Assembly (NCBI GenBank): GCA_963749595.1
Contig: CAVVNJ010000010.1
Span: 1,223-65,222, forward strand
Length of the DNA: 64,000 nt
Source: Candidatus Woesebacteria bacterium
GTDB lineage: Bacteria; Patescibacteriota; Microgenomatia; UBA1400; UBA1396
Direction of reading: 5' to 3'
The position numbers and the translations under genes are program-made. Below are positions 21,230-48,513 of the stretch, in pieces. The notes beneath the pieces are model-generated. The model worked only from the letters and a program-made list of their open reading frames with translations. It was not told the origin of the DNA and searched no databases. Positions within the stretch are counted from its first letter, which is position 1. Each line of letters begins with the position of its first letter.

Positions 21230-21312
21230 AATTCCTTCCTGTTTCTGGCATCAGTATTACACTCGATTATCTCCCCGTCCAGTCTCTGACGGCATAAAAA
21301 AACGCCATTCAC

Positions 21313-21426
21313 CCGGCCCTGAGCTATTCTCCCACATCGTTGCCAATGCAGTACGTTCACCGCTGCGGCGTTTCAAGACTCTGTTCGGAAAGGGAAGAGT
21401 TGGGACCACCGCGCACTAAGGACCGG
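21313..21426 (-). rRNA. rrf: 5S rRNA
   Basis: The reverse complement reads CCGGTCCTTAGTGCGCGGTGGTCCCAACTCTTCCCTTTCCGAACAGAGTCTTGAAACGCCGCAGCGGTGAACG...GGGCCGG. The termini pair and a T7 run follows. Confidence 0.8.
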
Positions 21427-21444
21427 ATGAATGGCGTCTCTCTC

Positions 21445-21521
21445 GGGTCTGACCCTCAGGGTCAAACGGATCCATCATCAAATGTTCAAGTACAGGTCTT
21501 TACCCCCGGAGGGTCAGACCC
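21445..21521. repeat. REP-like palindromic units in the 23S-5S spacer
   Basis: The units are GGGTCTGACCC, AGGGTCAAAC, AGGTCTTTACCC and GAGGGTCAGACCC. Confidence 0.5.
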
Positions 21522-21538
21522 GTAGTGTTCACGAGCAC

Positions 21539-21562
21539 TTCGCTCGCAAACAAGTAGAGAGA
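21539..21562 (-). other. 3' half of the 23S processing stem
   Basis: TTCGCTCGCAAACAAGTAGAGAGA is the near-perfect inverted complement of 24714-24737. Confidence 0.7.
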
Positions 21563-21710
21563 CACCAGCTTTTTCCGAAGAAAAAGTCGGCTTTCAAAAA
21601 ACCTACACGCAATCATTTTTTCGCGTCTGTTTCCCGAAGGAAACGTTCGAATTTGTGGTCGATTTCTCGAGCCAGCATATGCTGACTCATTAACAACCAC
21701 GTGTATTCAA

Positions 21711-24621
<2,911 letters not shown>

Positions 24622-24713
24622 TGAATCAACATGAAATGACTGCGTGTCGATAATAACGAATTATTATCATTTGCGGAGCGGCGCGAACGCCGCTCCATGC
24701 GGTTTCTTGATTG

Positions 24714-24737
24714 TCTCTCTACTTGTTCACGAGCGAA
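24714..24737 (-). other. 5' half of the 23S processing stem
   Basis: TCTCTCTACTTGTTCACGAGCGAA pairs with 21539-21562, in the manner of an RNase III-type flanking helix. Confidence 0.7.
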
Positions 24738-24879
24738 AGGACGCGCGCAAGTCTTTCGACTCGGGCAACGCCCAATCTCCATTTCTGCGCCGGAAAACTA
24801 AGTAAAAATCACGGCCCGCTATGACTAGCAAAACCTGAAAAGTGATGTATGTACGAAGTTGTCTTTAGCAGAGGACTGT

Positions 24880-24908
24880 AATATACCATGCGACCCGCCG
24901 AGTGGCAA
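24880..24908 (-). promoter_or_regulatory. Sigma70-like promoter dedicated to 23S-5S
   Basis: The minus strand reads cccTTGCCA-N17-TATATTac. The -35 lies at 24903-24908 and the -10 at 24880-24885. Confidence 0.6.
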
Positions 24909-24971
24909 GGGGAAAGCGGATGCGTCTTTGTAGCATAATAAAACATCGATCTATAAATGGAGGGACAACGA

Positions 24972-25000
24972 TTGACGAGCTTCTAGCGACTGGTTAAACT
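24972..25000 (+). promoter_or_regulatory. Candidate promoter for the 25029 gene
   Basis: TTGACG-N17-TAAACT lies upstream, and an AAGGAG RBS precedes the ATG at 25029. Confidence 0.4.
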
Positions 25001-25028
25001 GATCTCAGCGCTATTATAAGGAGCATGC

Positions 25029-25931
25029 ATGAAAATCAAAAGGAAACAACGCCCAATTATTGCCATCTTAGCTTTGATCCTGATTGCCGGAGCAGGCGTC
25101 GTTGTTTATTTGACTTCCCAACGTGTTACCACCCAAACCAGCGATGAGCGAGCCGCCGCCAGCGCTACTTTAAAATGTGCTAAGGGCACGAAGAATTGTA
25201 TTTTGGGAGCCGTAAAAGCTGAAGGATGTACCATCATTGGTGGTGCGGCCGATACCGCCAAGCCTGGCGACTCACTACAGATTAAAGCCACTTATCAGGG
25301 TGAAACAATTGGCACAGCGACCGCTAATGAGCCAACCCAGTTCCCGCCAGCTATCAAAGGCACCCCCGGCAATCATGGTTTTACTATCGATCTGACCGAT
25401 AAGCTGCCTGTGGGAGTCAATAAAGTTGAGGTGGTTGCCTCACCCGCCACCGGCAGCTCATCAAAAGAAACCATTATTTCCGGAGCCCTAGAAGCAACCC
25501 GCAGATCCGGAACCAACTTTGCCCTGGTGAATTGCGGCGGCTTGGCCTGGAATGCAGTCTCCTCAAAACACCTTCCGGCTAAGACTGCTGCTCAACGCTC
25601 ATATCAATTCAGCATAACCGTAAAAAATACCGGAACTACTGACTGGCGCTTTGACGAAATTTATGGTCAGGTTTCCGTAGCGGTGTATGACCGCACCAAG
25701 AATCAGTATGTTGCTAGTTCCGGCATTGTTGTTGCTCCTAACAAAAATCACCTTGATGCTGATCAGGTGATAGCGACCGGACAAAGCAAGACTTTTAACT
25801 TTACGGTCGAAACCAAGAAAGCGGGCATGTATTTTCTAACTTTTGACCTAAAAACTACCGATGGCAATCGGCCTCTACGATTCACGGGTCAAAGCAAATC
25901 CGAAGGCTCTTTCCCGGTAACCGTTGAATAG
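25029..25931 (+). CDS. Secreted/anchored hypothetical protein (300 aa)
   Basis: The N-terminal signal/anchor is MKIKRKQRPIIAILALILIAGAGVVVYL. No catalytic motif was found. Confidence 0.55.
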   Translation: MKIKRKQRPIIAILALILIAGAGVVVYLTSQRVTTQTSDERAAASATLKCAKGTKNCILGAVKAEGCTIIGGAADTAKPGDSLQIKATYQGETIGTATANEPTQFPPAIKGTPGNHGFTIDLTDKLPVGVNKVEVVASPATGSSSKETIISGALEATRRSGTNFALVNCGGLAWNAVSSKHLPAKTAAQRSYQFSITVKNTGTTDWRFDEIYGQVSVAVYDRTKNQYVASSGIVVAPNKNHLDADQVIATGQSKTFNFTVETKKAGMYFLTFDLKTTDGNRPLRFTGQSKSEGSFPVTVE

Positions 25932-25955
25932 AGCATTTAGACGGACTAGCACGCT

Positions 25956-26032
25956 TGGTGGACCCTAGGAGATTCGAACTCCTGACCTCTTCATTGCAAA
26001 TGAAGCGCTCTAGCCAGCTGAGCTAAGGGCCC
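25956..26032 (-). tRNA. tRNA-Ala (anticodon TGC), CCA encoded
   Basis: Hand fold: GGGCCCT TA GCTC AGCTGGCTA GAGC G CTTCA TTTGCAA TGAAG AGGTC AGGAG TTCGAAT CTCCT AGGGTCC ACCA. Confidence 0.9.
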
Positions 26033-26078
26033 GCGATAGCAAATTATATCATTTCGGGTGTGCGATAATTTCCTGGCT

Positions 26079-27164
26079 ATGAATAAAAGAGTCTTGTCGT
26101 TTGACCTAATCCGCACCTTCGCTATCTTGGGCGTAGTTGCCACCCACACTGAAGCGATCACTGCTTCGACCACAAATTATCTCGGAGGGATTTCCTGGTG
26201 GTTAGCCAATACGCTCCATTCCCTGGCTGCAGTCAGCATTCCTCTATTCGTAATGTTAACTGGAGCGCTGGTGCTGACGAAGGCCAAAATCAGCTGGGGT
26301 TACATTGGGCCCAAGATCGTCCGGCTTTTCATAATCCCGTTATTGTTTTGGTGGCCGCTATATTACTGGTGGACCACGATTCGGCCAGGCGGATCGTTCC
26401 AGCTGGTCGATCTTGTTCGTCGATTTTTCATTGTAGACATCGGCCATCTATATTATCTGCCGGTAGTCATTGGCTTATATTTGATTCTCCCCTTCCTCTC
26501 GACACGCCTCCATAAAATGCAGAAGAAACATTTCCCGCTCCTGCTGGGAGTGGTCACGAGTGTTGTGCTGATTTATCGGCATTTAAGTTTCTTTGTTTTC
26601 CGATCAACTAGCTCAACCAACATCGCCCTTATTTTCCTTCCTTACCTGATGTATCTCCTTTGGGGGTTCTTCCTTTCCGGAATACGCATCAGCCGCAAAG
26701 CCTGCTTTATCCTCTTGGAGATAGCGATTATCTTGATCGGACTATCGTCACTGCTTACTTATCAAAATACTCTGGCCTACAATTTGGGTAATCGGTTTTT
26801 TTGGACCAATGGTGGCGGCAACTTCTTTTGGGACCCTTTTACGGTCCCACTGCTGATATTATCCGCCACCGTATTTCTCCTACTAATGAATATCGAAATC
26901 GTCCTCCCAACCATCTTCCGTTCCCGTTGGTTGAAGAACTCATTGGTCGTTATTTCCAGCGCCAGCTTTGGAATTTATCTTATCCACCCGATTGTGATGG
27001 AAGTCCTCGACAACTGGCTGAGGATATCGATCCAGTTCATCAGCTACCCGCTCTGGATTTGGTATTTCCAGCGAACCACTCTGGTGTTTCTTGCCTCGGC
27101 AGGACTATCCATCTTGGCAATAAAAATACCTGTTATCCGAAATGTTTTTGGCGCGAGAAATTGA
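26079..27164 (+). CDS. Membrane acyltransferase (acyltransferase-3/OafA-like family)
   Basis: It starts MNKRVLSFDLIRTFAILGVVATH and has about 10 hydrophobic helices. Confidence 0.75.
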   Translation: MNKRVLSFDLIRTFAILGVVATHTEAITASTTNYLGGISWWLANTLHSLAAVSIPLFVMLTGALVLTKAKISWGYIGPKIVRLFIIPLLFWWPLYYWWTTIRPGGSFQLVDLVRRFFIVDIGHLYYLPVVIGLYLILPFLSTRLHKMQKKHFPLLLGVVTSVVLIYRHLSFFVFRSTSSTNIALIFLPYLMYLLWGFFLSGIRISRKACFILLEIAIILIGLSSLLTYQNTLAYNLGNRFFWTNGGGNFFWDPFTVPLLILSATVFLLLMNIEIVLPTIFRSRWLKNSLVVISSASFGIYLIHPIVMEVLDNWLRISIQFISYPLWIWYFQRTTLVFLASAGLSILAIKIPVIRNVFGARN

Positions 27165-27170
27165 CTCGCC

Positions 27171-27521
27171 CTACTCGTCTTCATCATCTGGTTCGTCTGG
27201 TTCATCATGCGGCTCACCATCCGTTGTAAAGTCCAGCGGTGGCGAATAAAAAGCCGCCGCGTGTGGTTCGCTGGATAGAACCGGCTTGATTCCATGCTTG
27301 GCAAAACCATCCTCCAACCAGGACTGAGCCCGAAAATTGCTCACACTGACTTCCATTTCATCGACAAATCCAGAAGCGGCAAACGAAGTCAGCGGCAAAC
27401 CCTGTTTGACTTCGGCATCCCAAATTGTCTTCTGAATTTCTTTATATTTATCGATGTTCTCTCGACCCCTAATTGTGTAGAACCATTTCCTGGGTTGAGG
27501 TTCAGTTTCCCGACTTAGCAT
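27171..27521 (-). CDS. Hypothetical protein with an acidic C-terminal tail
   Basis: ORF only. The tail is ..DEPDEPDDEDE. Confidence 0.4.
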   Translation of the reverse strand: MLSRETEPQPRKWFYTIRGRENIDKYKEIQKTIWDAEVKQGLPLTSFAASGFVDEMEVSVSNFRAQSWLEDGFAKHGIKPVLSSEPHAAAFYSPPLDFTTDGEPHDEPDEPDDEDE

Positions 27522-27569
27522 AAAATCCTTTTTTCCAGGTTATTTATTAGTGATTATAGCAAAATTAGA

Positions 27570-28058
27570 TCAATTGCCTTTGCTCTTCCGGCGAATTTTT
27601 TCTGCGACCCTGGCCAACTCCTCATCCGGCACGCGCGGGCCGTTGTTCGAGCACAAATAGCCTGGATATTCCGGAAAAACCATTTCCTTGACATCACTGT
27701 CGATCGGCCGCCAACCCGCGCGATACTTAGCGGTACCGTGCATCGGGAACAGCTTGGCGTGCAGGTGGTCCACTCCGTAACCCTCGAAAAATAAACCCGT
27801 CCGCTCCACGTCATCGGCATAAGCCTGGTCGATTAGTTTGGCAACTTTTTTACTGGCGATCACCAAATCAGCGATCACCGAATCATCGTTATTGAAAGCA
27901 TAGCTATCGAGATGTTCTTTGGTCGCTACCACGGTAAAAGCTTCAGTATTGGGGAAAATCGTCAAAAACGCCAAGTGTTTCTCGTCTTCCCAAATTTTAT
28001 GGCAGGGAATCTCGCCGGAAACAAATTTGCAAAATAGACAATCGGGGTTAGCCTTCAT
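27570..28058 (-). CDS. HIT-family nucleotide hydrolase/transferase (variant HxHxK motif)
   Basis: It has the N-terminal CLFCKFVSGEIPCHKIWEDEKHLAFL and ..GVDHLHAKLFP... Confidence 0.75.
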   Translation of the reverse strand: MKANPDCLFCKFVSGEIPCHKIWEDEKHLAFLTIFPNTEAFTVVATKEHLDSYAFNNDDSVIADLVIASKKVAKLIDQAYADDVERTGLFFEGYGVDHLHAKLFPMHGTAKYRAGWRPIDSDVKEMVFPEYPGYLCSNNGPRVPDEELARVAEKIRRKSKGN

Positions 28059-28103
28059 GGAGCAATTTTAGCATTTGCTAGAATCGATTCAGAAAGGCCA
28101 AAT

Positions 28104-28532
28104 ATGCGTTGGCTTAAGCGGATGGAAACACTAAGCGGCCGGTTTCAAAAACCTGAGACCGGCAACGAAATCTGGCAGTATGGGGGCGAAGATCTGCGCG
28201 AATTGTTCTCTGTCTGGCTGCTCGACTCCATTGTCCGGACCATGAGTGTTTACCACCGGAAGAAACAGCTGCCGATTGCGTCCGAAATTGCCAATCTGCG
28301 CGAACAAGCGGCGGAAGTTGAACGGCGCCTGAGAACCAACGGCTGGTTTTTCGGGCGGGATAGTTCGATTATCAGCGATTACAAAACCATGATCGTCCGA
28401 TCCGGATCATATGGTCAACTTTTCCATGAACAATTCCGACCAGAAATGTCGACTGCCGAAGCTTTGGAATTAATGAAAAGAAATGTTGCCCTGTGGGACT
28501 GGCGCTGGTTTTGGAAGCATCACCAGCGGTAA
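28104..28532 (+). CDS. Hypothetical protein (142 aa)
   Basis: ORF only. Confidence 0.4.
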   Translation: MRWLKRMETLSGRFQKPETGNEIWQYGGEDLRELFSVWLLDSIVRTMSVYHRKKQLPIASEIANLREQAAEVERRLRTNGWFFGRDSSIISDYKTMIVRSGSYGQLFHEQFRPEMSTAEALELMKRNVALWDWRWFWKHHQR

Positions 28533-28535
28533 AAG

Positions 28536-28609
28536 TGAGGGTACTTGGACTTGAACCAAGGACCTCTGTCTTATCAGGACAGCGCTCTAGCCAACTGAGC
28601 TATACCCTC
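28536..28609 (-). tRNA. tRNA-Ile (anticodon GAT)
   Basis: Hand fold: GAGGGTA TA GCTC AGTTGGCTA GAGC G CTGTC CTGATAA GACAG AGGTC CTTGG TTCAAGT CCAAG TACCCTC A. Confidence 0.9.
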
Positions 28610-28656
28610 GATAAATCGAGTTCCAATTGTATCATAAACTGCTACAATGGCCGAGT

Positions 28657-29191
28657 ATGTCCTTCGATCGATCGACTGCTCTCAATCTCCTCGACCAATA
28701 CGTCAAAAACCCTTCCCTGCGGCGCCATTGCGAAATGGTCTCCCAGGCAATGGGCGCCTACGCCGACAAACTCGGAAAGGATCATGAACTTTGGTCGTTG
28801 ACCGGTCTGTTGCACGATCTGGATTGGGAACAATTCCCGGACGAACACCCCATGAAGGCGGTGACGGAAATTTTACCGACGGCCGGTGCCCCGGCGGAAA
28901 TGATCGAGGCGATCGCCGCCCACGCCCCTGCATCGATCCGGCAAAGAGCCGCACACCTTAATGGAACGTTATTTGTTTGCTTGCGACGAAGCCTGTGGTT
29001 TTCTGGACGCCATCGCCAAAATTCGGCCCAACGGCTATGCCGATCTGGAATGGCCATCGGTGCATAAAAAAATGAAGGATAAGCGTTTTGCCGCCAACGT
29101 TTCGCGCGAGGATATTATTAAGGGTGCCGAGTTAATCGAGTTAACCCTGGACGACCATATTTCTTTCCTGATCGACATTTTCCGGAAGTAG
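28657..29191 (+). pseudogene. HD-domain phosphohydrolase with one frameshift
   Basis: Sense switches from ..LTGLLHDLDWEQF..IEAIAAHA to ..RSGKEPHTLMERYLFACDEACGFLDAI.. in the next frame. The switch is at or near the C4 run 28925-28928. Confidence 0.65.
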
Positions 29192-29217
29192 ACACAAAAA
29201 AAGCGCCTAAGGCGCTA

Positions 29218-29270
29218 TTGGGGTCTAACCCTCTTGAAGTCAACTTGTGACCTCCGAAGGTTAGACCCCA
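29218..29270. repeat. REP-like palindromic units downstream of 16S
   Basis: GGGGTCTAACCCTC ... GAAGGTTAGACCCC. A further unit, GAGGGTTAAACCCTC, lies at about 29362-29376. Confidence 0.5.
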
Positions 29271-29377
29271 GCCCCGTCCCCATTCTCCATATTTCGCCAA
29301 TCAATCTAACGGAGCAGAAACCGATTGGTTACTTAAAGAGCGCGGGGCACTCTTAGTTTTTGAGAGGGTTAAACCCT

Positions 29378-29408
29378 CAGATAAACAGCACACGGACTGA
29401 CAGGAAGG
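29378..29408 (-). other. 3' half of the 16S processing stem
   Basis: CAGATAAACAGCACACGGACTGACAGGAAGG is the inverted complement of 31055-31084, about 28 of 30 positions by eye. Confidence 0.7.
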
Positions 29409-29499
29409 CCTGGACACTGAGATCACAGGACTTCTGGAGTTTTACTAACATTACTGTTAGAAGGGAAGAGGCGTGAGGCCCTTACCTTGAACTCCTTAG

Positions 29500-31001
<1,502 letters not shown>

Positions 31002-31054
31002 TAGAATGTAACGGAAAATTACTGTCTCACGGAGAGACAAAAGATTCCGTAAAA

Positions 31055-42331: not shown

Positions 42332-44104
42332 TTAGGCCACCCGGATCTTCGCCAGTTCTTGAGTGGTGGTAATGTCCGCCACGCTTTTGTCATCCCGAAA
42401 CCGCACCAGACGGGGAAAACGCAACGCCACCCCCGCCGTATGCAGTGGCGATTTGGTAATCTCGTCCGCCGCCACTTCAACCACTAACTCCGGCGTCAGG
42501 AGCACATCCGGTTGTAACGCCTCCGGAATATCAATTTGCCAAGCGGATTTTTTCTGACCTTTGGCCGCAATTTGGTTAGCCCGCTCTTTGAACTCCCGCC
42601 ACTGTTCATCCGAAAGACCGGTGCCGATCTTGGCCAGAGTCACAATTGCGTCGCGTTTGGGATCAAGAACGCCGACCAAAAAAGCGCCGACACCAAAGGC
42701 GGTTCGTTTGCCCCGACCGGCATACGTTCCCAACACCACCGCGTCGACGGTGTCGGTCAGCTTGGCCGTGGTCCCCTCCACTTCTTTCATCTTGACCCAG
42801 TTAAAATCCTGGCGTCCGGGTTGATAGAAACCGTCGACGCGCTTAATCACTACCCCTTCCAGCCCGGCGCCCAACTGCTTTTGGTGGAATTCACGAAAAG
42901 CTTCGGGGTCGGTAGTTCGCAAATGCGGGGCCAGGGTCAAATCGCGTTTGGCCGGCGCCAGTACCTTTTCCAGCTGAGCCCGGCGCTCGGCCATCGGCAC
43001 CCGCAGCAACGACCGGCCGTTGTAATAAAGCAGATCGAAAACAAAGAAACGCAGTGGAATGCTGGCGGCCGCGGCCTCAATGCCGTGCTTGCGTTTGCGC
43101 TTGATGGTTTGCTGAAAAGTCACCAGCTCGCCACTTTCCGGATCATAGCCCACGGCTTCGGCGTCAAAAATGACTGTCTGGGCGTCGACTTCCGCCACGA
43201 ACTTGGGCAGCTCGGGAAACATCGGGGTGTTTTCTTCCAGATTGCGGGTATAAGAATGTAGCTCTCCGGTCTGGGAGTTCCAGTGAATTTGCAACCGGGT
43301 GCCATCATATTTGGGCTCAACGAAGACCTCACCCATCTTGGCGATCACTTCAGTGGGACTTTTAATCCGGTCGCATAGTGCGGCCAAGATCGGCACACTC
43401 AAGGCCGCGTCCAACTTCTGGGCCGCCGTCAAACCGCCGCGCAAAACTTGAGCCGCGATTTCCCCGATGTCAGGGTGGCGTTGATAAATGTCATCTAGTT
43501 CCGGACGAACCGACTTGTCTCCCTTGAGAAACCAAGACAGGGCATCCAAAATAGTACGGTCGGAAAAACCGAGCCGCAGGTGTCCCATCACCATTCGCGC
43601 CACATACCGAGCCGACAGCGGATCGAGTTCCTTAAACAGCGCTGCCACCGCGCGGATCTTTTCGTCCTGACTCCCCTGTCCGCCCAGCTCGGTAATTTCC
43701 AGCAGTCGAGCATACAAATCTTTGACCGTTAGCGAACCCTGGCCACCAAACTTACGCACGACCTCCTCGGCCAATAGACCAATGTCACCCAGTTTCTTGA
43801 ACCGCTTCTTCATTTGTTGCTTGGCTTCTTCATCACGCAACCCTACCGCTCCACCAAATAAATCGGTTTTGTGTTCCCCGCCCTCGATCGACGTTAGGGA
43901 ATAAAGCATGAACTGCAAGCCAAAGTTATATTCCCGATTGGCATAAATTGGCCCCGTTTGACCGAGCACCAGATAAAGAAACGGCGCCACCTCGTCGGCC
44001 GTGACCGAATGCAAAAACTCCGCCAGAAGACGGGTCTGCTCTAGTTTTTTACTAGTAACTTCCAGCGGCTGCAAAACTTTTTGGGTGAAATCGGCGACTT
44101 TCAT
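42332..44104 (-). CDS. ATP-dependent DNA ligase, three-domain Lig1/archaeal-like (590 aa)
   Basis: The adenylation motif is VEPKYDGTRLQIHW (KxDG). It also has ..EGVVIKR.. and ..WVKMK.. motifs, and a long N-terminal DNA-binding-domain-sized region. Confidence 0.9.
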   Translation of the reverse strand: MKVADFTQKVLQPLEVTSKKLEQTRLLAEFLHSVTADEVAPFLYLVLGQTGPIYANREYNFGLQFMLYSLTSIEGGEHKTDLFGGAVGLRDEEAKQQMKKRFKKLGDIGLLAEEVVRKFGGQGSLTVKDLYARLLEITELGGQGSQDEKIRAVAALFKELDPLSARYVARMVMGHLRLGFSDRTILDALSWFLKGDKSVRPELDDIYQRHPDIGEIAAQVLRGGLTAAQKLDAALSVPILAALCDRIKSPTEVIAKMGEVFVEPKYDGTRLQIHWNSQTGELHSYTRNLEENTPMFPELPKFVAEVDAQTVIFDAEAVGYDPESGELVTFQQTIKRKRKHGIEAAAASIPLRFFVFDLLYYNGRSLLRVPMAERRAQLEKVLAPAKRDLTLAPHLRTTDPEAFREFHQKQLGAGLEGVVIKRVDGFYQPGRQDFNWVKMKEVEGTTAKLTDTVDAVVLGTYAGRGKRTAFGVGAFLVGVLDPKRDAIVTLAKIGTGLSDEQWREFKERANQIAAKGQKKSAWQIDIPEALQPDVLLTPELVVEVAADEITKSPLHTAGVALRFPRLVRFRDDKSVADITTTQELAKIRVA

Positions 44105-44123
44105 AACTGTAGATTACCAGAGC

Positions 44124-45233
44124 TTAGACCAAGGTGTAATTCACGCCCTTGGTGACACCGTGCTTGCGAATGATGCCCTTGGCGATTAGGTCTTTCAGAT
44201 CGCGCAAAATGGTATCGGTAGAAATCAGTGGCAGAATTTCGTTCAAGTCTAGCGAGCTAACCTTGCCCCGCTCCTGCAAGTATTCCATGATAATTAACTG
44301 GCGCTCGGTCAGGGCCACCTGTTGACCGAGCTTTTTCTGCAGGCGAAAATCTTGGGACAGTTTGAGCACGGCTTGCTTGATCCGGTCCAACTCGATTGCC
44401 AAGCCGTAAGAAAAATATTCCAACCAGTAGGTTAGATCAGAATTGGGGCTATCCTGCACCGATTTGATGGCCCGGTAGTAACCCTCAATGTCATTGTCAA
44501 AATACTGTTCGAGTGAGAAAAAGCGCTTGACGTCAAATCCCTCGGCGTACATCAGGGCGAGCGCGGCCGCGCGGGCGGTCCGACCGTTGCCCTCGATAAA
44601 CGGATGGATGTGCACTAGCTGATAATGCGTCGCGGCCGCGCGAAAAATGGTGTGCAATCCTGAAGATTCGGGACCGTTCAACCAGGCAAAAAACTCTTTC
44701 AGGAGCAGCGGCACTTCTTCCGGAATCGGCGGGCGGTAAGCGATTTGTCCGCTTTCCACGCTGCGCACCACGACGCGCTGAGTACGGTACTGACCACAAT
44801 TTTCCGGCGGAATGATCCGGTGTACGCACAGCGAGTGCCAGGTACGCAACATATCCTCGGTATAAAGCGGGCGCGCTCCAGGCGAAATTTTACGGCCCCA
44901 ATCATTAATCCAGTCCAGAACGGCACGATAGTTAATCACCTCCTGAATGTCGCGCGCCCGGCCCACAATGCCAGCCTGACGGGCTACCTCATCGGTCTGG
45001 GTTCCAGGGGTCGCGATCACCCGCTCCGCTTGCTCGGCGCTTAATTCATTACCCTCCAGACGGGTGCCGTGATAAACCGTGCGCACCCGCGCTTCCTGCT
45101 GAAACTTGGCCTCCCAGGCCGGTACCATTGGCGCATTACGGATAACCTCCCGCGACGCCTCAATGCTGGCAATATATTGGAGTAAGTTATTACTGATTCG
45201 AAAATTGGGCTGAAACATATCGCTACCAAACAC
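44124..45233 (-). CDS. Fic-family protein with a C-terminal winged-helix domain
   Basis: It carries the Fic motif HPFIEGNGRTAR. Confidence 0.85.
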   Translation of the reverse strand: MFGSDMFQPNFRISNNLLQYIASIEASREVIRNAPMVPAWEAKFQQEARVRTVYHGTRLEGNELSAEQAERVIATPGTQTDEVARQAGIVGRARDIQEVINYRAVLDWINDWGRKISPGARPLYTEDMLRTWHSLCVHRIIPPENCGQYRTQRVVVRSVESGQIAYRPPIPEEVPLLLKEFFAWLNGPESSGLHTIFRAAATHYQLVHIHPFIEGNGRTARAAALALMYAEGFDVKRFFSLEQYFDNDIEGYYRAIKSVQDSPNSDLTYWLEYFSYGLAIELDRIKQAVLKLSQDFRLQKKLGQQVALTERQLIIMEYLQERGKVSSLDLNEILPLISTDTILRDLKDLIAKGIIRKHGVTKGVNYTLV

Positions 45234-45273
45234 ACTGTATCACTATTTCGGCATCTTTTGCAACAATCAGACT

Positions 45274-45282
45274 TGCTATAAT
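45274..45282 (+). promoter_or_regulatory. Extended -10 promoter (TGC-TATAAT) for the 45292 gene
   Basis: The + strand reads ..gactTGcTATAATgtatggttcATG. Confidence 0.45.
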
Positions 45283-45291
45283 GTATGGTTC

Positions 45292-45597
45292 ATGCCAAAA
45301 ACACCGCGCAACTTCCAAGAACTTCCCTTGGCCTTCGTCCAGGAATCCATCGCTCTCGCCACCTCTGGTTTTGGCCTGGTGGTTGCCCTCGCCTGGAACG
45401 AACTGGTCAAGGATTTAATCAGCCATTACGTTGAACCCTACCTCGGTGCCTCCAGCGGGACGATCTCAAAATTAATCTATGCCCTCGTGATGACCTTCCT
45501 GGCGATTTTCGTGACCATGCAGTTGGTGAGAGTCGAGCAAACTTTGCAGCATCTGGCTGATCGGAAAAAAAAATCGACTAGGAAAAAAACAACTTGA
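45292..45597 (+). CDS. Small two-TM membrane protein (101 aa)
   Basis: It has two hydrophobic helices and a basic tail (..DRKKKSTRKKTT). Confidence 0.55.
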   Translation: MPKTPRNFQELPLAFVQESIALATSGFGLVVALAWNELVKDLISHYVEPYLGASSGTISKLIYALVMTFLAIFVTMQLVRVEQTLQHLADRKKKSTRKKTT

Positions 45598-45672
45598 CAT
45601 AAAAGATGATTTAGATTATAAGTAAACTTGCTAAATCCAATGTGTCTATCAACTAGCACAATTGAGCAATTA

Positions 45673-45696
45673 ATCCCTCTCGCAGAGGGATTTTTT
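45673..45696 (+). terminator. Intrinsic terminator
   Basis: ATCCCTCT-CGC-AGAGGGAT is followed by T6. Confidence 0.75.
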
Positions 45697-45749
45697 GTGG
45701 TTTTTGTAACTATCTGGTAAGAATTATTTGCTATAAAGCGAGTGTGGTC

Positions 45750-45821
45750 AGGCCCGGCTACTGGTAGCAAATTGGATTTAGCATCTCAATTACGGGGGTT
45801 CGATGCCCCTCGGGTCCACCA
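45750..45821 (+). ncRNA. tRNA-Ala-like RNA #3 (acceptor stem + T-arm + ACCA, no anticodon arm found)
   Basis: AGGCCCG | 37 nt | GGGGG TTCGATG CCCCT | CGGGTCC | ACCA. The pairs are A1.C72, G2:C71, G3:U70, then 4 G:C pairs. Confidence 0.4.
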
Positions 45822-46832
45822 CTATTGAGTGACCAGCATCCAAGCAATTGGTATCTGCTCGATCAGATCCGAGGTATTAAACATGACACCCTGTTTTAGA
45901 TATAGCTCGTGTCCAGCTTGTTTATTCAGCCACGCCCCCACCACCGCCGAAGCAAAAGCCGGAGATGTAGCCCGGAAACCCAAGATCAAACCAGCTAACG
46001 CATCGCCGGTGCCACCTTTGCTTAGTCCTGCGTTGCCACCAGCTAGAATCACCAGCTCCGCGTCGTTCCAAATTAAATCAACCGTTCCCTTCAGCAAAAA
46101 GGTCGCTCCCCGGCAATCTTGAGAAAGATGATGTAGTTGATCCCGCAACCGACCGTCGATAAAATTCTGCCAGATATGTTCGGAAACAAACTGCGCCGGC
46201 AAAGAATCGGGGTTTCCCAAAGGATGGTGAACCGAGTGGGCCAAATCCTGCTGCGCTGACAGTAATTTTTCCAACCAGCCGGGAGTGCCACCAGGCAGCT
46301 TGGCCAAAAATTGCCTTAGTTCAACCAGGTGCGGCGTTAACACTGCCTCCGCCGGCGTCCAAGTTGGGTCCATTACCTGTAACGCGCCGGCATCGATTAT
46401 CCAACGCTTACTCGGCCAACCCAGCAGCAACGCCGCCGTGACCGCCCGCGTATCGGTTTCCCAATCCAACGGTAATAATTCTTCGGCCCGGAGTTGATTT
46501 AATTGTTCGTCGGTAAAACGGGTAACCACGTCACGCCGCATGCCCGGCCCAATCAAAATCGCGTCGGCTTCTCCCAAATAATGCGGCAACTCAGCCCGGG
46601 GCACCACCACACCATCATGGGCATAAAACTTGGCGTCACGCAGTAGCTCGTTATTCTCTGCCACCGAGGCATAAAAAGTCATGTCGACCAAGCGGGAACA
46701 AATTTTAAAACTCCACTGGCTGGCGGCGTGAAATAAATCGCTGCCGCCGACAATCAGCGCCTTGCCATTCTGACCTTTGTGGGACAGGGGTTGAGGCTGG
46801 TGAATTTGCGCCAGAAAGCCGGAAAGCATCAT
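45822..46832 (-). CDS. NAD(P)H-hydrate dehydratase / YjeF C-terminal carbohydrate-kinase-like protein
   Basis: It contains ..GGNAGLSKGGTGDALAGLILG... Confidence 0.75.
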   Translation of the reverse strand: MMLSGFLAQIHQPQPLSHKGQNGKALIVGGSDLFHAASQWSFKICSRLVDMTFYASVAENNELLRDAKFYAHDGVVVPRAELPHYLGEADAILIGPGMRRDVVTRFTDEQLNQLRAEELLPLDWETDTRAVTAALLLGWPSKRWIIDAGALQVMDPTWTPAEAVLTPHLVELRQFLAKLPGGTPGWLEKLLSAQQDLAHSVHHPLGNPDSLPAQFVSEHIWQNFIDGRLRDQLHHLSQDCRGATFLLKGTVDLIWNDAELVILAGGNAGLSKGGTGDALAGLILGFRATSPAFASAVVGAWLNKQAGHELYLKQGVMFNTSDLIEQIPIAWMLVTQ

Positions 46833-46849
46833 TGACTCGAGTATAGCAG

Positions 46850-47470
46850 CTAGCGCGACGTCTCCGCCGACGTGACGCCGATTTGATAAGCGGCTACGAT
46901 TTGCACCAGAGTGTCACGCGGCAAACCAACCAAACTAAGGACATAAGGCAAACGATTTCCCTCCTCGACTAGCTTATCCAGCGAAAAGGCCCCGGTGGTT
47001 GGATCAAACAACTTGGCTAAATGCTGAAGCGCAGCAATCGAGTGTTCGGTTTTAAGCGCTGCCGTCTGATTCCCATTAACTAAACCTGGCTGGCTAACTT
47101 TAATGAGCTGTTGCGTTTTGGCGTGGGCCAAATTAAGTAAACCAACCACTTTAATCCGCATGGCCGCCCGCAAGCGGAGTTCGTTGCGCTTAAGTTCTTC
47201 GTCGGTTGAGGGTTCAAAAATCCGCCAAGCGGCCGATTTGGTGGCGACTTGGTAGTTATTTTTTTGGAGCTGGAGCCAAATCGAGCCAATAACCACGATC
47301 TCGGTCATCTCCCAAGCAATATCCCAGAGCAATACTTGGACTGGCGTACCGACTTCCCGGAAGCGCTGATAAAACTCTTCCTGAGTTTGGGTTTGTGGAT
47401 CGAAGTGGAATAAATCCGAGTGCTTATTGGTGCTGGGCAGAACCTCGGTCTCGGGTGGCTTCCTGATCAT
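46850..47470 (-). CDS. Hypothetical protein (about 206 aa)
   Basis: ATG at 47470 forms an ATGA overlap with the recF stop. No motif was recognised. Confidence 0.45.
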   Translation of the reverse strand: MIRKPPETEVLPSTNKHSDLFHFDPQTQTQEEFYQRFREVGTPVQVLLWDIAWEMTEIVVIGSIWLQLQKNNYQVATKSAAWRIFEPSTDEELKRNELRLRAAMRIKVVGLLNLAHAKTQQLIKVSQPGLVNGNQTAALKTEHSIAALQHLAKLFDPTTGAFSLDKLVEEGNRLPYVLSLVGLPRDTLVQIVAAYQIGVTSAETSR

Positions 47471-48513
47471 AGGAGGGTAGTATACGTCATGGTCAAAGTG
47501 GGTGGAATCTCGATACAAGTGAGGATGACTTGTTGACCTTTGACCGCTCTTAAAAGGAACGATTGATTGTCGGCGTCCAGTTCAGAAAAAACGTCATCGA
47601 GCAATAAAACCGGCGCCTCGGCTGAGCGGGAACGCAAGTACGCCAACTCGCTCAATTTCCACCAGACGAGGGCTAAACGCTGTTCACCACGGGAACCAAA
47701 ATGTTCAATGTCACGCCAATCGCCACCGCGGGAAAACTCAATTTTCCAATCGTCCTTGTGCGGGCCGACCAGCGTATGACCCGCCCCCACCTCGGCTTGG
47801 GCATAATGATGTAAGCGTTCTTCGGAAATAACCGAGTGATCATAAGTCACACGGTATGGTTCGCGAATTCCGTCTTGTTGACTGAGCCACTGGAGAAATT
47901 CGGCGCGGGCGGTATGGAGCACTGTACCGTGTTCGATCAGGAGCCGGTCCCAGGCAAAAAAATCATAGCGATCAGCCTGACCAGTGCGTAGCTGAACGAT
48001 GAGTTTGTTGCGGCGGCGCAGGGCTTGTTCGTAGCCACGCCGGGAACGGCGATAATCGGGCCAAACTTGATCCAACAGCCGGTCCAACAAGCGCCGCCGC
48101 GCACTCGGACCCGCCTGAAAAACATTCATGTCTTCCGGCGTGAACAAAACGGTTTGCAACTGGCCCGCCGCCTCGCTGGAGCGCCGCCCCACCCCGTTCA
48201 CCCGGTACAAACGCTTATTGGTTCGTTTGCCTTGGATTGAACCGGCGGTAAAAATTTGCTCCAAATCGATTATTTCGCCGCTGTCTAACTCGACTTTGCC
48301 TTTAATTCGCCCCAATTCACTTTGCCAGCGGATTAATTCTTCGGTCCGATCGGCGCGCCAGGACTCGCCGGTGGCCAATAACTGAATGGCTTCAATCAAA
48401 TTGGACTTGCCGCTGCCGTTGGGGGCGGCCAAAACATTGAGTCCTGGCGCAAAGACCCAATGCTTTTCGGCAAAAGAGCGAAAATTTTGCAACCACAGAC
48501 CGTCGATTCTCAT
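47467..48513 (-). CDS. recF: DNA replication/repair protein RecF
   Basis: It starts MRIDGLWLQNFRSF..., has the Walker A motif APNGSGKSN and the ..LLLDDVFSELD.. signature. Confidence 0.9.
   Translation of the reverse strand: MRIDGLWLQNFRSFAEKHWVFAPGLNVLAAPNGSGKSNLIEAIQLLATGESWRADRTEELIRWQSELGRIKGKVELDSGEIIDLEQIFTAGSIQGKRTNKRLYRVNGVGRRSSEAAGQLQTVLFTPEDMNVFQAGPSARRRLLDRLLDQVWPDYRRSRRGYEQALRRRNKLIVQLRTGQADRYDFFAWDRLLIEHGTVLHTARAEFLQWLSQQDGIREPYRVTYDHSVISEERLHHYAQAEVGAGHTLVGPHKDDWKIEFSRGGDWRDIEHFGSRGEQRLALVWWKLSELAYLRSRSAEAPVLLLDDVFSELDADNQSFLLRAVKGQQVILTCIEIPPTLTMTYTTLL

Follow-up and report, generated by a model that had tools for sequence, protein, structure and literature searches.

The window analyzed here is a stretch of 64,000 nt from a Candidatus Woesebacteria bacterium (assembly GCA_963749595.1, contig CAVVNJ010000010.1, positions 1,223 to 65,222, forward strand). 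At 45.6 kb it holds a tRNA-shaped RNA, referred to as #3, whose anticodon-like arm is complementary over 13 nt to a segment just upstream, which lies past the stop codon of an open reading frame (ORF). The locus raises the question of whether these two segments pair as RNA and, if they do, which transcripts take part and what the pairing is for. We found two adjacent genes, with a cloverleaf fold, promoter and terminator signals, and a complementarity that is conserved, co-varying, specific to each module and evident at the RNA level. We consider it probable that they form a two-gene, RNA-only module in which a dedicated small RNA (sRNA) keeps a tRNA mimic inactive, in a manner akin to antisense immunity or addiction.

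Complementary segments at the 45.6-kb locus

The 13-mer TGCTAAATCCAAT at 45629-45641 is the exact reverse complement of ATTGGATTTAGCA at 45771-45783, and a second match follows, in which CTCAATT is the exact complement of AATTGAG (Z and Z' in Table 1). The initial annotation had listed both complementarities, and we found them exact to the nucleotide, as we did its placing of the 13-mer, 3' of the stop of the 45292-45597 ORF (TGA, 45595-45597) and 5' of a terminator-like hairpin followed by a T run. It had also described the two pairings as collinear and not nested, which is correct and recurs across the family presented below. The product of the ORF is a 101-aa DUF5654 protein (PF18898). A pattern search of the window in either strand sense, allowing at most one mismatch, returned no 13-mer match beyond the two sites. 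The expected count of the 13-mer or its complement at this tolerance is 0.10 per window, and two matches were obtained in none of 100 shuffles. When the arm was shuffled and compared with its own flanks, a complement of 13 nt was attained in 1 of 2000 trials.

Table 1. Features of the three modules in the window (X and Z, segments of the anticodon-like arm; X' and Z', complementary segments of the partner; MFE, minimum free energy)
Feature	Position	Strand	Details
Partner promoter, 45.6-kb locus	45594-45622	+	-35 TTGACA 45594-45599 (overlaps the DUF5654 stop), 17-nt spacer, -10 TATAAG 45617-45622
Partner sRNA, ~70 nt	45629-45698	+	ends inferred from promoter and terminator
Partner X'	45629-45641	+	pairs with X
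Partner hairpin loop	45646-45651	+	CTATCA
Partner Z'	45660-45666	+	AATTGAG
Partner terminator stem	45672-45692	+	followed by U tract
Promoter of #3, extended -10 type	45729-45737	+	TGCTATAAA; inferred, start expected near 45744
tRNA-shaped RNA #3	45750-45821	+	family covariance model 54.9 bits at 45750-45818; cloverleaf MFE
#3 acceptor stem	45750-45756 with 45811-45817	+	A1.C72 mismatch, G3.U70
#3 miniature D arm	45757-45768	+	
#3 anticodon-like arm	45770-45791	+	5' strand 45770-45776, loop TTTAGCA 45777-45783, 3' strand 45784-45791
#3 X, arm 5' strand and loop	45771-45783	+	pairs with X'; covaries with L121
#3 Z, arm 3' strand	45785-45791	+	complementary to Z'
#3 T arm	45794-45810	+	A73 at 45818, then CCA
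Partner sRNA, 52-kb module	51955-52030	-	-10 TTTAAT 52030-52025; terminator stem 51976-51959
Paralogous tRNA-shaped RNA, 52-kb module	52078-52145	-	covariance model 56.0 bits
Partner sRNA gene, 62.4-kb module	62312-62413	-	promoter TTGAAA, 16 nt, TAGGAT (62413-62386); terminator near 62337-62312
Paralogous tRNA-shaped RNA, 62.4-kb module	62435-62501	-	covariance model 53.6 bits; acceptor GGGCGTG/CACGTCC, G3.U70, CCA not encoded
62.4-kb X	62482-62471	-	
62.4-kb Z	62470-62465	-	ACTGAG

The complementarity covaries between orthologous loci

Homologs of the DUF5654 gene lie in the syntenic order ligase, Fic, DUF5654, Carb_kinase, SMC_N, and the closest ortholog (L121/L131) is the sole one with a module between DUF5654 and Carb_kinase. 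The DUF5654 protein of L121 is 82% identical and the DNA ~75% identical to that of the window. Its arm 13-mer is GCCGGACTTGGTA and its partner TACCAAGTCCGGC, so that 6 of 13 positions have changed on each side, all by transitions and all compensated. Because three of the changes fall in the arm loop, the arm's own stem cannot explain this covariation. At the three stem positions the covariation is threefold, involving the arm 3' strand, the partner and the hairpin that the partner itself forms. Conserved in L121 are the promoters, the terminator, the D arm, the acceptor stem and the T arm, with 28/28 nt retained over the T arm and the acceptor 3' strand. Similarly, the ortholog of the 52-kb module (see below) in L131 has another loop, GGATTGGC, with a matching partner start, GCCAATCC, after TATAAT; both the loop and the sRNA 5' end have been replaced, while a 9-nt complement is retained and the flanks are conserved. 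The covariation is based on one ortholog per module. The initial annotation had proposed to look for co-variation in related genomes and would have given up the pairing had the complementarity been absent or invariant at homologous loci; what we observed in L121 is a pairing kept by compensated changes.

The entire module is missing from seven DUF5654 ortholog loci that are more distant. DUF5654 and Carb_kinase overlap directly in L123, L127/L128 and L129, and in L124/L125, L126 and L130 other sequence stands between the genes, in which the covariance model detected no tRNA-like RNA. A search for related metagenome loci with the Carb_kinase protein returned none, nor did an exact look-up of the protein. 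The closest relatives are metagenome contigs, and the named genomes that bear modules are Patescibacteria.

The partner segment has its own promoter and terminator

The promoter upstream of the 13-mer agrees with the consensus at 11 of 12 positions, its -10 box ending 6 nt before the 13-mer, and the same site in L121 reads TTGACA, 17 nt, TATAAA. A promoter scan requiring T at the final -10 position misses TATAAG, and a separate consensus scoring was therefore used. Since this promoter is matched by a terminator of its own, the partner segment is most likely, judging from sequence, a separate sRNA of ~70 nt with the 13-mer as its 5' end. This terminator probably serves the DUF5654 mRNA as well, which may then include the 13-mer as a passenger. 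The segment is not merely the 3' untranslated region (UTR) of the membrane-protein gene, as it had been labeled. The RNA-RNA pairing proposed there is real, as the L121 covariation indicates, but the partner as a feature of the membrane-protein mRNA is unsupported. The conserved loop of the partner hairpin is complementary to the D arm of #3.

Two candidate functions for the partner were rejected. Many partners start with (A/G)UG, as a leaderless small ORF would, but the resulting frames vary from 1 to >30 codons, are unconserved and have terminators inside. For T-box-like antitermination, the sequence after the terminator is GTGG in the window and GTAAG in L121, and hence unconserved. The CCA to which a UGGN bulge would pair (tRNA NCCA) is encoded in 8 of the 44 family members listed, and no gene follows the 62.4-kb partner on the same strand, which also speaks against T-box-like sensing.

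The tRNA-shaped RNA resembles tRNA-Ala in acceptor stem and T arm

The term tRNA-like, as first applied to #3, is appropriate: its MFE structure is a cloverleaf, with a body of 69 nt, a normal T arm and a miniature D arm. In the three window copies a D hairpin of 3-4 bp with a GG-containing loop directly follows the acceptor stem, the U8 linker being absent, and all three have a 7-bp acceptor with G3.U70 and A73. By its sequence, the mimic reproduces the host tRNA-Ala in its acceptor stem (G3:U70) and its T arm, and its acceptor has identity elements of the tRNA-Ala type. The 3' part of #3, 45794-45821, reads GGGGGTTCGATGCCCCTCGGGTCCACCA.

Standard detectors do not report such an RNA as a tRNA. 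The element has no linker between acceptor and D arm, and the tRNA model RF00005 gave no match at 45750-45821. ARAGORN called only four genuine tRNAs in the window, and neither #3 nor any tmRNA. The best clan match of #3 in Rfam was tmRNA, with 15.8 bits against a gathering score of 47, and it covered the model ends only.

The arrangement "TTTGCTATAAT, 6-8 nt, leader" seen at the putative promoter of #3 also precedes other family members. A box, TGGTAAGAATT or GTAAGGATT, occurs upstream of all three tRNA-like genes of the window (45716-45726; 52180-52170 and 62530-62522 on the minus strand), and is sometimes doubled with 11-nt spacing. We rejected the TGGTAAGAATT box as specific to the module, as it is also found 5' of an unrelated 70-aa ORF in L130 (~934-944); either form is probably a general promoter or operator element of the lineage.

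Two further modules in the window

A covariance model (R1) built from 39 family members finds exactly three elements in the window (Table 1). For comparison, it assigns 28-38 bits to the three genuine tRNA-Ala genes. The two minus-strand copies had first been found by a relaxed T-arm search. Each is accompanied by a partner, in an order (tRNA-like RNA first, partner after) that is the reverse of that at the 45.6-kb locus. In the 62.4-kb module the partner carries X' TCTCGGGCCGAG (62378-62367), an exact 12-nt complement of arm X, and a second collinear match, Z' CTCAGT (62348-62343) with Z. The 52-kb copy has an acceptor, GGGCCCA/TGGGTCC, identical to the tRNA-Ala(GGC) stem of the genome. Its pairing is degenerate, with a complement of 6+2 nt (AGTCTC 52018-52013 with GAGACT 52123-52118).

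We evaluated the pairing by cofolding, in line with the folding check that had been suggested for this locus. The net gain was -8.1 kcal/mol at the 45.6-kb locus, -15.2 in L121, -9.9 in the 62.4-kb module and -9.1 in L131, and 0 in the 52-kb module. The neighbors of the window modules are lepA, an ORF resembling a pilin of type IV secretion systems, SMC_N and uncharacterized ORFs. Beside the 52-kb module, in the 5' part of the opposite-strand lepA, lies a weak Rfam match to AsrC (51861-51916, plus strand; 29.5 bits versus a gathering score of 111, E 5.8e-05).

Related modules in other genomes and metagenomes

Counts from the genome collection and the metagenomes refer here to the matches listed. 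In the scan patterns the bases of the T stem and of acceptor pairs 1-4 were preset, and most of the genome-collection matches listed were genuine tRNA-Ala genes or the 3' ends of tmRNAs. Family members were nevertheless recovered in Patescibacteria (L008, 19 nt complement after TTGACT, 16 nt, TATAAT), Sungiibacteriota (L010, complement ~16/18, with an upstream partner that has its own terminator), Pacebacteria (L013, 12 nt), a metagenome-assembled genome labeled Gammaproteobacteria (L055, ~20 nt) and Peribacteria (L072, where no partner was found); in L141 the complement is 14/15. A pattern excluding U8, which removes most true tRNAs, gave 66 loci in viral contigs and at least 120 in metagenomes. 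After deduplication, the metagenome loci comprise 80 "mini" elements, none longer than 72 nt, and 30 of them have an exact complement of at least 10 nt within 250 nt, the longest being 19 nt; the same scan found one for 2 of 31 ordinary tRNAs. Complements of this length were present in 30 of 78 own flanks versus 60 of 6006 foreign flanks, a ~38-fold excess. These figures use the longest exact complement; a matrix of RNAduplex energies was dropped, as G+C-rich flanks gave strong spurious duplexes.

The metagenome units that we inspected are uniform, with 13-19 nt of complement and one layout throughout. An extended -10 promoter and a leader of 4-6 nt precede the cloverleaf, which has no terminator; there follow TTGACA, 16-18 nt, TATAAT, the complementarity, 30-40 nt more of sRNA and a terminator. 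Partner starts cluster 40-59 nt past the tRNA-like 3' end, and the complementarity starts 5-9 nt past the -10 box. A promoter matching at least 10 of 12 consensus positions is found in 63% of the modules versus 0.3% of control positions, and 33 of 43 modules have a run of at least five T 35-130 nt downstream. The order with the tRNA-like RNA first is the commoner one; an upstream partner with its own terminator is found at the 45.6-kb locus, L121, L010 and L312. The same unit of partner and tRNA-like RNA thus occurs in the two window paralogs and in dozens of unrelated loci without a DUF5654-type gene, and each module carries its own pairing sequence. No protein family common to most, let alone all, of the modules emerged from Pfam searches of the window neighbors or from an all-against-all BLAST of the ORFs within 2.5 kb of 44 modules.

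The cloverleaf itself varies in a structured way, with covariation at acceptor pairs 5-7, at the first T-stem pair and at the base of the arm. The arm loop has an anticodon-loop-like motif, Y-U-N-N-C-A, and loops are mostly of 8-10 nt, which argues against decoding. Of 44 family members, 38 have T at position -1, and this is the leader base that bacterial RNase P prefers. Leader and trailer can pair for at least 4 bp outward from -1:A73 in 45% of modules, versus 8% of mismatched controls.

The family also indicates which molecules pair. At the first mismatch on the partner 3' side, G.U is found in 23 of 43 cases and A.C in 6 of 43, with Watson-Crick pairing resuming in 29 and 26 of 43. This asymmetry points to RNA transcribed from the annotated strand, and would be unexpected for a DNA repeat or for transcripts of the opposite strand. 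In 35% of cognate comparisons, versus 5% of non-cognate ones and 7% upstream of the partner, a further collinear segment of at least 6 nt is complementary to the arm 3' strand; it lies downstream of the first segment, often by 15-45 nt. The complementarity is therefore compensatory, cognate-specific and at the RNA level, as in trans-antisense pairs in general.

A proposed mechanism

Because the two partner segments complement the 5' and the 3' strand of the arm, they also pair with each other, into a hairpin of the partner's own. Two hairpins built on the same stem in opposite polarity and joined by a loop-tail contact are arranged as in a strand exchange by way of a four-way junction, which explains the collinear order of the pairings. 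In the window and in L121 the partner loop CUAYCA can in addition pair with UGGUAG of the D arm, with a predicted duplex of up to ~21 bp.

We suggest that the module works as follows. The first gene would produce a cloverleaf RNA of ~69 nt, with a long anticodon-like arm and a loop of 8-10 nt, and the second, adjacent on the same strand, a terminator-ended sRNA of ~70 nt driven by a near-consensus promoter; the initial 10-19 nt of this sRNA would be complementary to the arm loop and 5' strand. The single-stranded 5' end of the sRNA would dock on the arm loop, presumably as the initial step, and strand exchange would carry the pairing down the arm, until the arm hairpin and the sRNA hairpin open and re-pair with each other. 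The outcome would be an unfolded tRNA mimic and a duplex of 13-21 bp that RNase III might cut. Having private pairing sequences, the partners would recognize only each other. We infer that the sRNA is the controller, since it has the near-consensus promoter and its pairing region at a single-stranded 5' end, and since the cloverleaf is likely the more stable species. In Sok-type antisense RNAs, too, the pairing region is at the single-stranded 5' end.

A more specific version, which we offer tentatively and regard as rather doubtful in its entirety, is that the mimic accepts alanine and is an active, possibly toxic effector, restrained by its private antisense sRNA through loop docking and four-way exchange. 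Such a mimic might tie up alanyl-tRNA synthetase (AlaRS), EF-Tu, RNase P or the ribosome. An addiction or immunity system of this kind could extend over the small-genome Patescibacteria, and perhaps to their phages as well, with many non-cross-reacting specificities of which a single genome would carry several.

Several observations weigh against a dedicated antisense control of the mimic. The 52-kb module lacks a long pairing; as it has only the 6+2 nt complement and no cofolding gain, either the long pairing is dispensable or this copy is decaying. Fewer than 10 nt of exact complement accompany 48 of the 78 "mini" elements; in some it is interrupted by wobble pairs, and some, such as L072, may lack a partner. 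The conservation of acceptor pairs 1-4 and the T stem, including G3:U70, is unconstrained by the scan patterns only in the three window copies and two extra ones (L199 446-512 and L253 1959-2026, both with G3:U70). Modules with the tRNA-like RNA first have no intervening terminator, and a read-through transcript could pair with itself. Transcript ends, abundance and stability are all deduced from sequence, and the harm or activity of a free tRNA mimic is a proposal only.

Alternative explanations

The roles of the two RNAs could be reversed, with the tRNA-shaped RNA as a regulator of the C4 type, whose loop targets mRNAs elsewhere or in an invader, and the neighboring sRNA as a decoy or anti-sRNA that titrates it. 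The variable loops a' and b' of C4 RNA set target specificity, and C4-like sRNAs of Acinetobacter have antisense sRNAs (PMC5320573). The Y-U-N-N-C-A loop, resembling an anticodon loop, would be suited to fast pairing, and the prevalent T at -1 of the family members listed would agree with processing by RNase P. We nevertheless judge this reversal unlikely: no mRNA target is known, the window has no further match to the 13-mer, there is no C4 match in Rfam, and the pairing includes a stem strand in addition to the loop, a pattern more in keeping with a dedicated unfolding than with a loop seed serving multiple targets. Another possibility is a single read-through RNA or processing switch, in which the distal segment pairs in cis and controls folding or processing by RNase P or RNase Z. 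Most family members have no terminator between the tRNA-like gene and the partner, and the lengthening of the acceptor helix by leader and trailer points to a defined precursor. At the 45.6-kb locus, L121, L010 and L312, however, the pairing must be in trans because the upstream partner ends at its own terminator, and a near-consensus internal promoter placed exactly at the complementarity would be purposeless. The one larger structured RNA that the initial annotation had offered as an alternative is for the same reason unlikely at this locus, a terminator separating its two parts, and for the family as a whole we give the read-through switch a small chance.

Regulation or processing of the DUF5654 membrane-protein mRNA through its 3' UTR would account for a 13-mer that lies between the stop and the sole downstream terminator, and which that mRNA probably carries. 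We consider it very improbable, given that seven DUF5654 ortholog loci are devoid of the module, that it adjoins unrelated genes elsewhere, and that its partner has a promoter of its own, which places the transcription start at the complementarity. Even less credible is a split tmRNA-like system for ribosome rescue, consisting of an alanine-charged tRNA-like domain and a separate message RNA. G3:U70, a tmRNA-like T loop in two copies and the fact that the best Rfam matches are the tmRNA model ends would favor it, but we found no conserved frame, stop or tag-like ending in three frames of the partners of the window, L121, L008, L250 and L307. Strand polarity would put the remaining sRNA at the tRNA core, away from the decoding end, the tmRNA scores of 15.8-32 bits stay below the gathering score, and in L138 a family-like RNA adjoins a sequence that itself resembles a tmRNA 5' end. 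Finally, an isolated inverted match of 13 nt, with both halves within 200 nt, would not be extremely rare in 64 kb, so that a chance match, or an inverted repeat in DNA with no RNA role, might be envisaged. The compensatory changes in the orthologs, the ~38-fold excess in own flanks, the preference for G.U over A.C at mismatches and the fixed position relative to the promoter leave virtually no room for it.

Relation to described RNA systems

The closest described system in its logic is the C4 antisense RNA of phages P1 and P7 (RF01695), although structure, family and type of target differ. C4 itself measures ~77 nt, is structured and undergoes cleavage by RNase P, and Acinetobacter has multi-copy C4-like sRNAs with antisense sRNAs (PMC5320573). 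Like C4, the RNAs studied here are structured, of ~70-77 nt, with two complementarity segments, few variable specificity bases and multiple copies. With T at -1 and a leader that pairs with the trailer, 5' processing of the C4 type may also take place here, as far as sequence indicates. In contrast, the three stem-loops of C4 differ from our cloverleaf with its GTTCRA T loop and G3:U70, and C4 targets the ribosome-binding site of an mRNA, whereas the only conserved partner here is the 5' end of a dedicated neighboring sRNA. The C4 covariance model gave no match in 44000-47500 at E <=10, nor in seven family loci at E <=0.05.

The tRNA-like domain of tmRNA shares with these RNAs an acceptor of the tRNA-Ala type with G3:U70, a T arm and the lack of a decoding anticodon. 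It belongs, however, to an RNA of ~350 nt and not ~70 nt, with pseudoknots and a tag frame that are missing here, and in place of the tmRNA D-loop motif, which is of the GGAUUCGAC type, our elements have the miniature D hairpin. The tmRNA model (RF00023) yields 21-32 bits in relatives, below its threshold as at the 45.6-kb locus. MascRNA, menRNA and the bacterial YrlA are likewise cloverleaf-like mimics in which the D arm is reduced and the anticodon arm does not decode, and mascRNA-menRNA matches of 30-34 bits, below threshold, were obtained in family loci. Unlike our elements, mascRNA is eukaryotic and is cut from a long non-coding RNA; the ends of YrlA reportedly lie at the opposite pole of the RNA, and it is said to be accompanied by a gene for Rsr (Ro60). 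Neither mascRNA nor YrlA is known to have a cognate antisense partner.

The mechanism that we propose is familiar from the antisense pairs of plasmids and of type I toxin-antitoxin systems, such as CopA/CopT and Sok/hok. In these, contact begins when a single-stranded tail or a loop meets a U-turn loop of the anticodon type, and the pairing spreads through a four-way junction; the antisense promoter is strong, specificity is private to each pair, RNase III cuts the duplex, and the two RNAs are transcribed from opposite strands of one stretch of DNA, which makes them complementary automatically. Here, the genes are instead in tandem on one strand, so that complementarity must be kept by selection, and the target is a tRNA mimic and not the mRNA of a toxic peptide. 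A type I toxin-antitoxin system was rejected as a candidate: neither RNA has a conserved ORF, and DUF5654 is conserved in relatives without the module.

Rfam contains no family above threshold for these RNAs, only the sub-threshold tmRNA and mascRNA matches, and full-text literature searches on tRNA-like RNAs, on the candidate phyla radiation (CPR), Patescibacteria and Saccharibacteria, on RNA antitoxins and on U-turns gave nothing relevant to them. A tRNA mimic with a dedicated sRNA as its only conserved partner is thus an arrangement undescribed in the literature searched. In Patescibacteria (CPR), whose genomes are tiny, hardly any regulatory RNAs have been described; the window holds three modules, and dozens more are listed from metagenomes; the covariance model R1 can be used to annotate the family. 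The modules offer a natural example of tandem antisense partners kept complementary by co-evolution alone, apparently through strand exchange. If the mimic is indeed charged with alanine or binds tRNA-handling enzymes, antisense control would be linked to the translation machinery.

Further observations

On short contigs, modules often occur in pairs, two to a few hundred bases apart (L199 446-512/737-804, L303, L312, L253 904-971/1959-2026). Such neighboring duplicates differ in the arm and each has its own partner, as if modules had been duplicated locally and had then diverged in specificity. In a subfamily (L055, L253, L254, L224, L207) the module lies antisense within or beside a long ORF, whose reading frame traverses the complement of the tRNA-like RNA. 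This ORF has an IS1-like zinc-finger motif (CPYC...CNDC) and a weak match to PD-(D/E)XK nucleases (E 0.0003, below the cut-off).

Viral contigs and metagenomes contain other tRNA-shaped RNAs. A recurrent ~79-nt element in IMG/VR contigs resembles a lone tRNA-like domain of tmRNA, with GGGCCTGGAATGGTTTCGAC, a short hairpin and GGACAGGGGTTCGAATCCCCTCAGGTCCA (L133, L139, L142-L144, L146, L149, L160, L162-L164, L173, L175, L177, L179, L186, L197); ARAGORN does not call it, and no neighboring complement was found. A mini D arm and no U8, together with a proper 7-nt anticodon loop, are seen in L132, L136, L151, L155, L168, L295 and others. The anticodon is UGC (Ala) in viral contigs and metagenomes, and CUA, as in an amber suppressor, on a G3:U70 acceptor stem in L295; we saw no antisense partner next to these RNAs. 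In L138 (~547-700; viral contig IMGVR_UViG_3300028800_002381) the family-like tRNA-shaped RNA stands directly 5' of the tmRNA-5'-end-like sequence, GGGCCTGACCAGGTTTCGAC..., which has its own promoter (TTGACT, 17 nt, TATAGT).

The window also includes an rRNA operon (21311-31004, minus strand), with rRNA match scores that are low for their length and with unusually long spacers. The 16S gene (29500-31004) is followed by tRNA-Ile (28535-28609), ~2.5 kb, tRNA-Ala (25956-26032), ~1.35 kb, 23S (21698-24610) and 5S, and the spacers hold opposite-strand ORFs of 300 and 368 aa (25029-25931 and 26058-27164).

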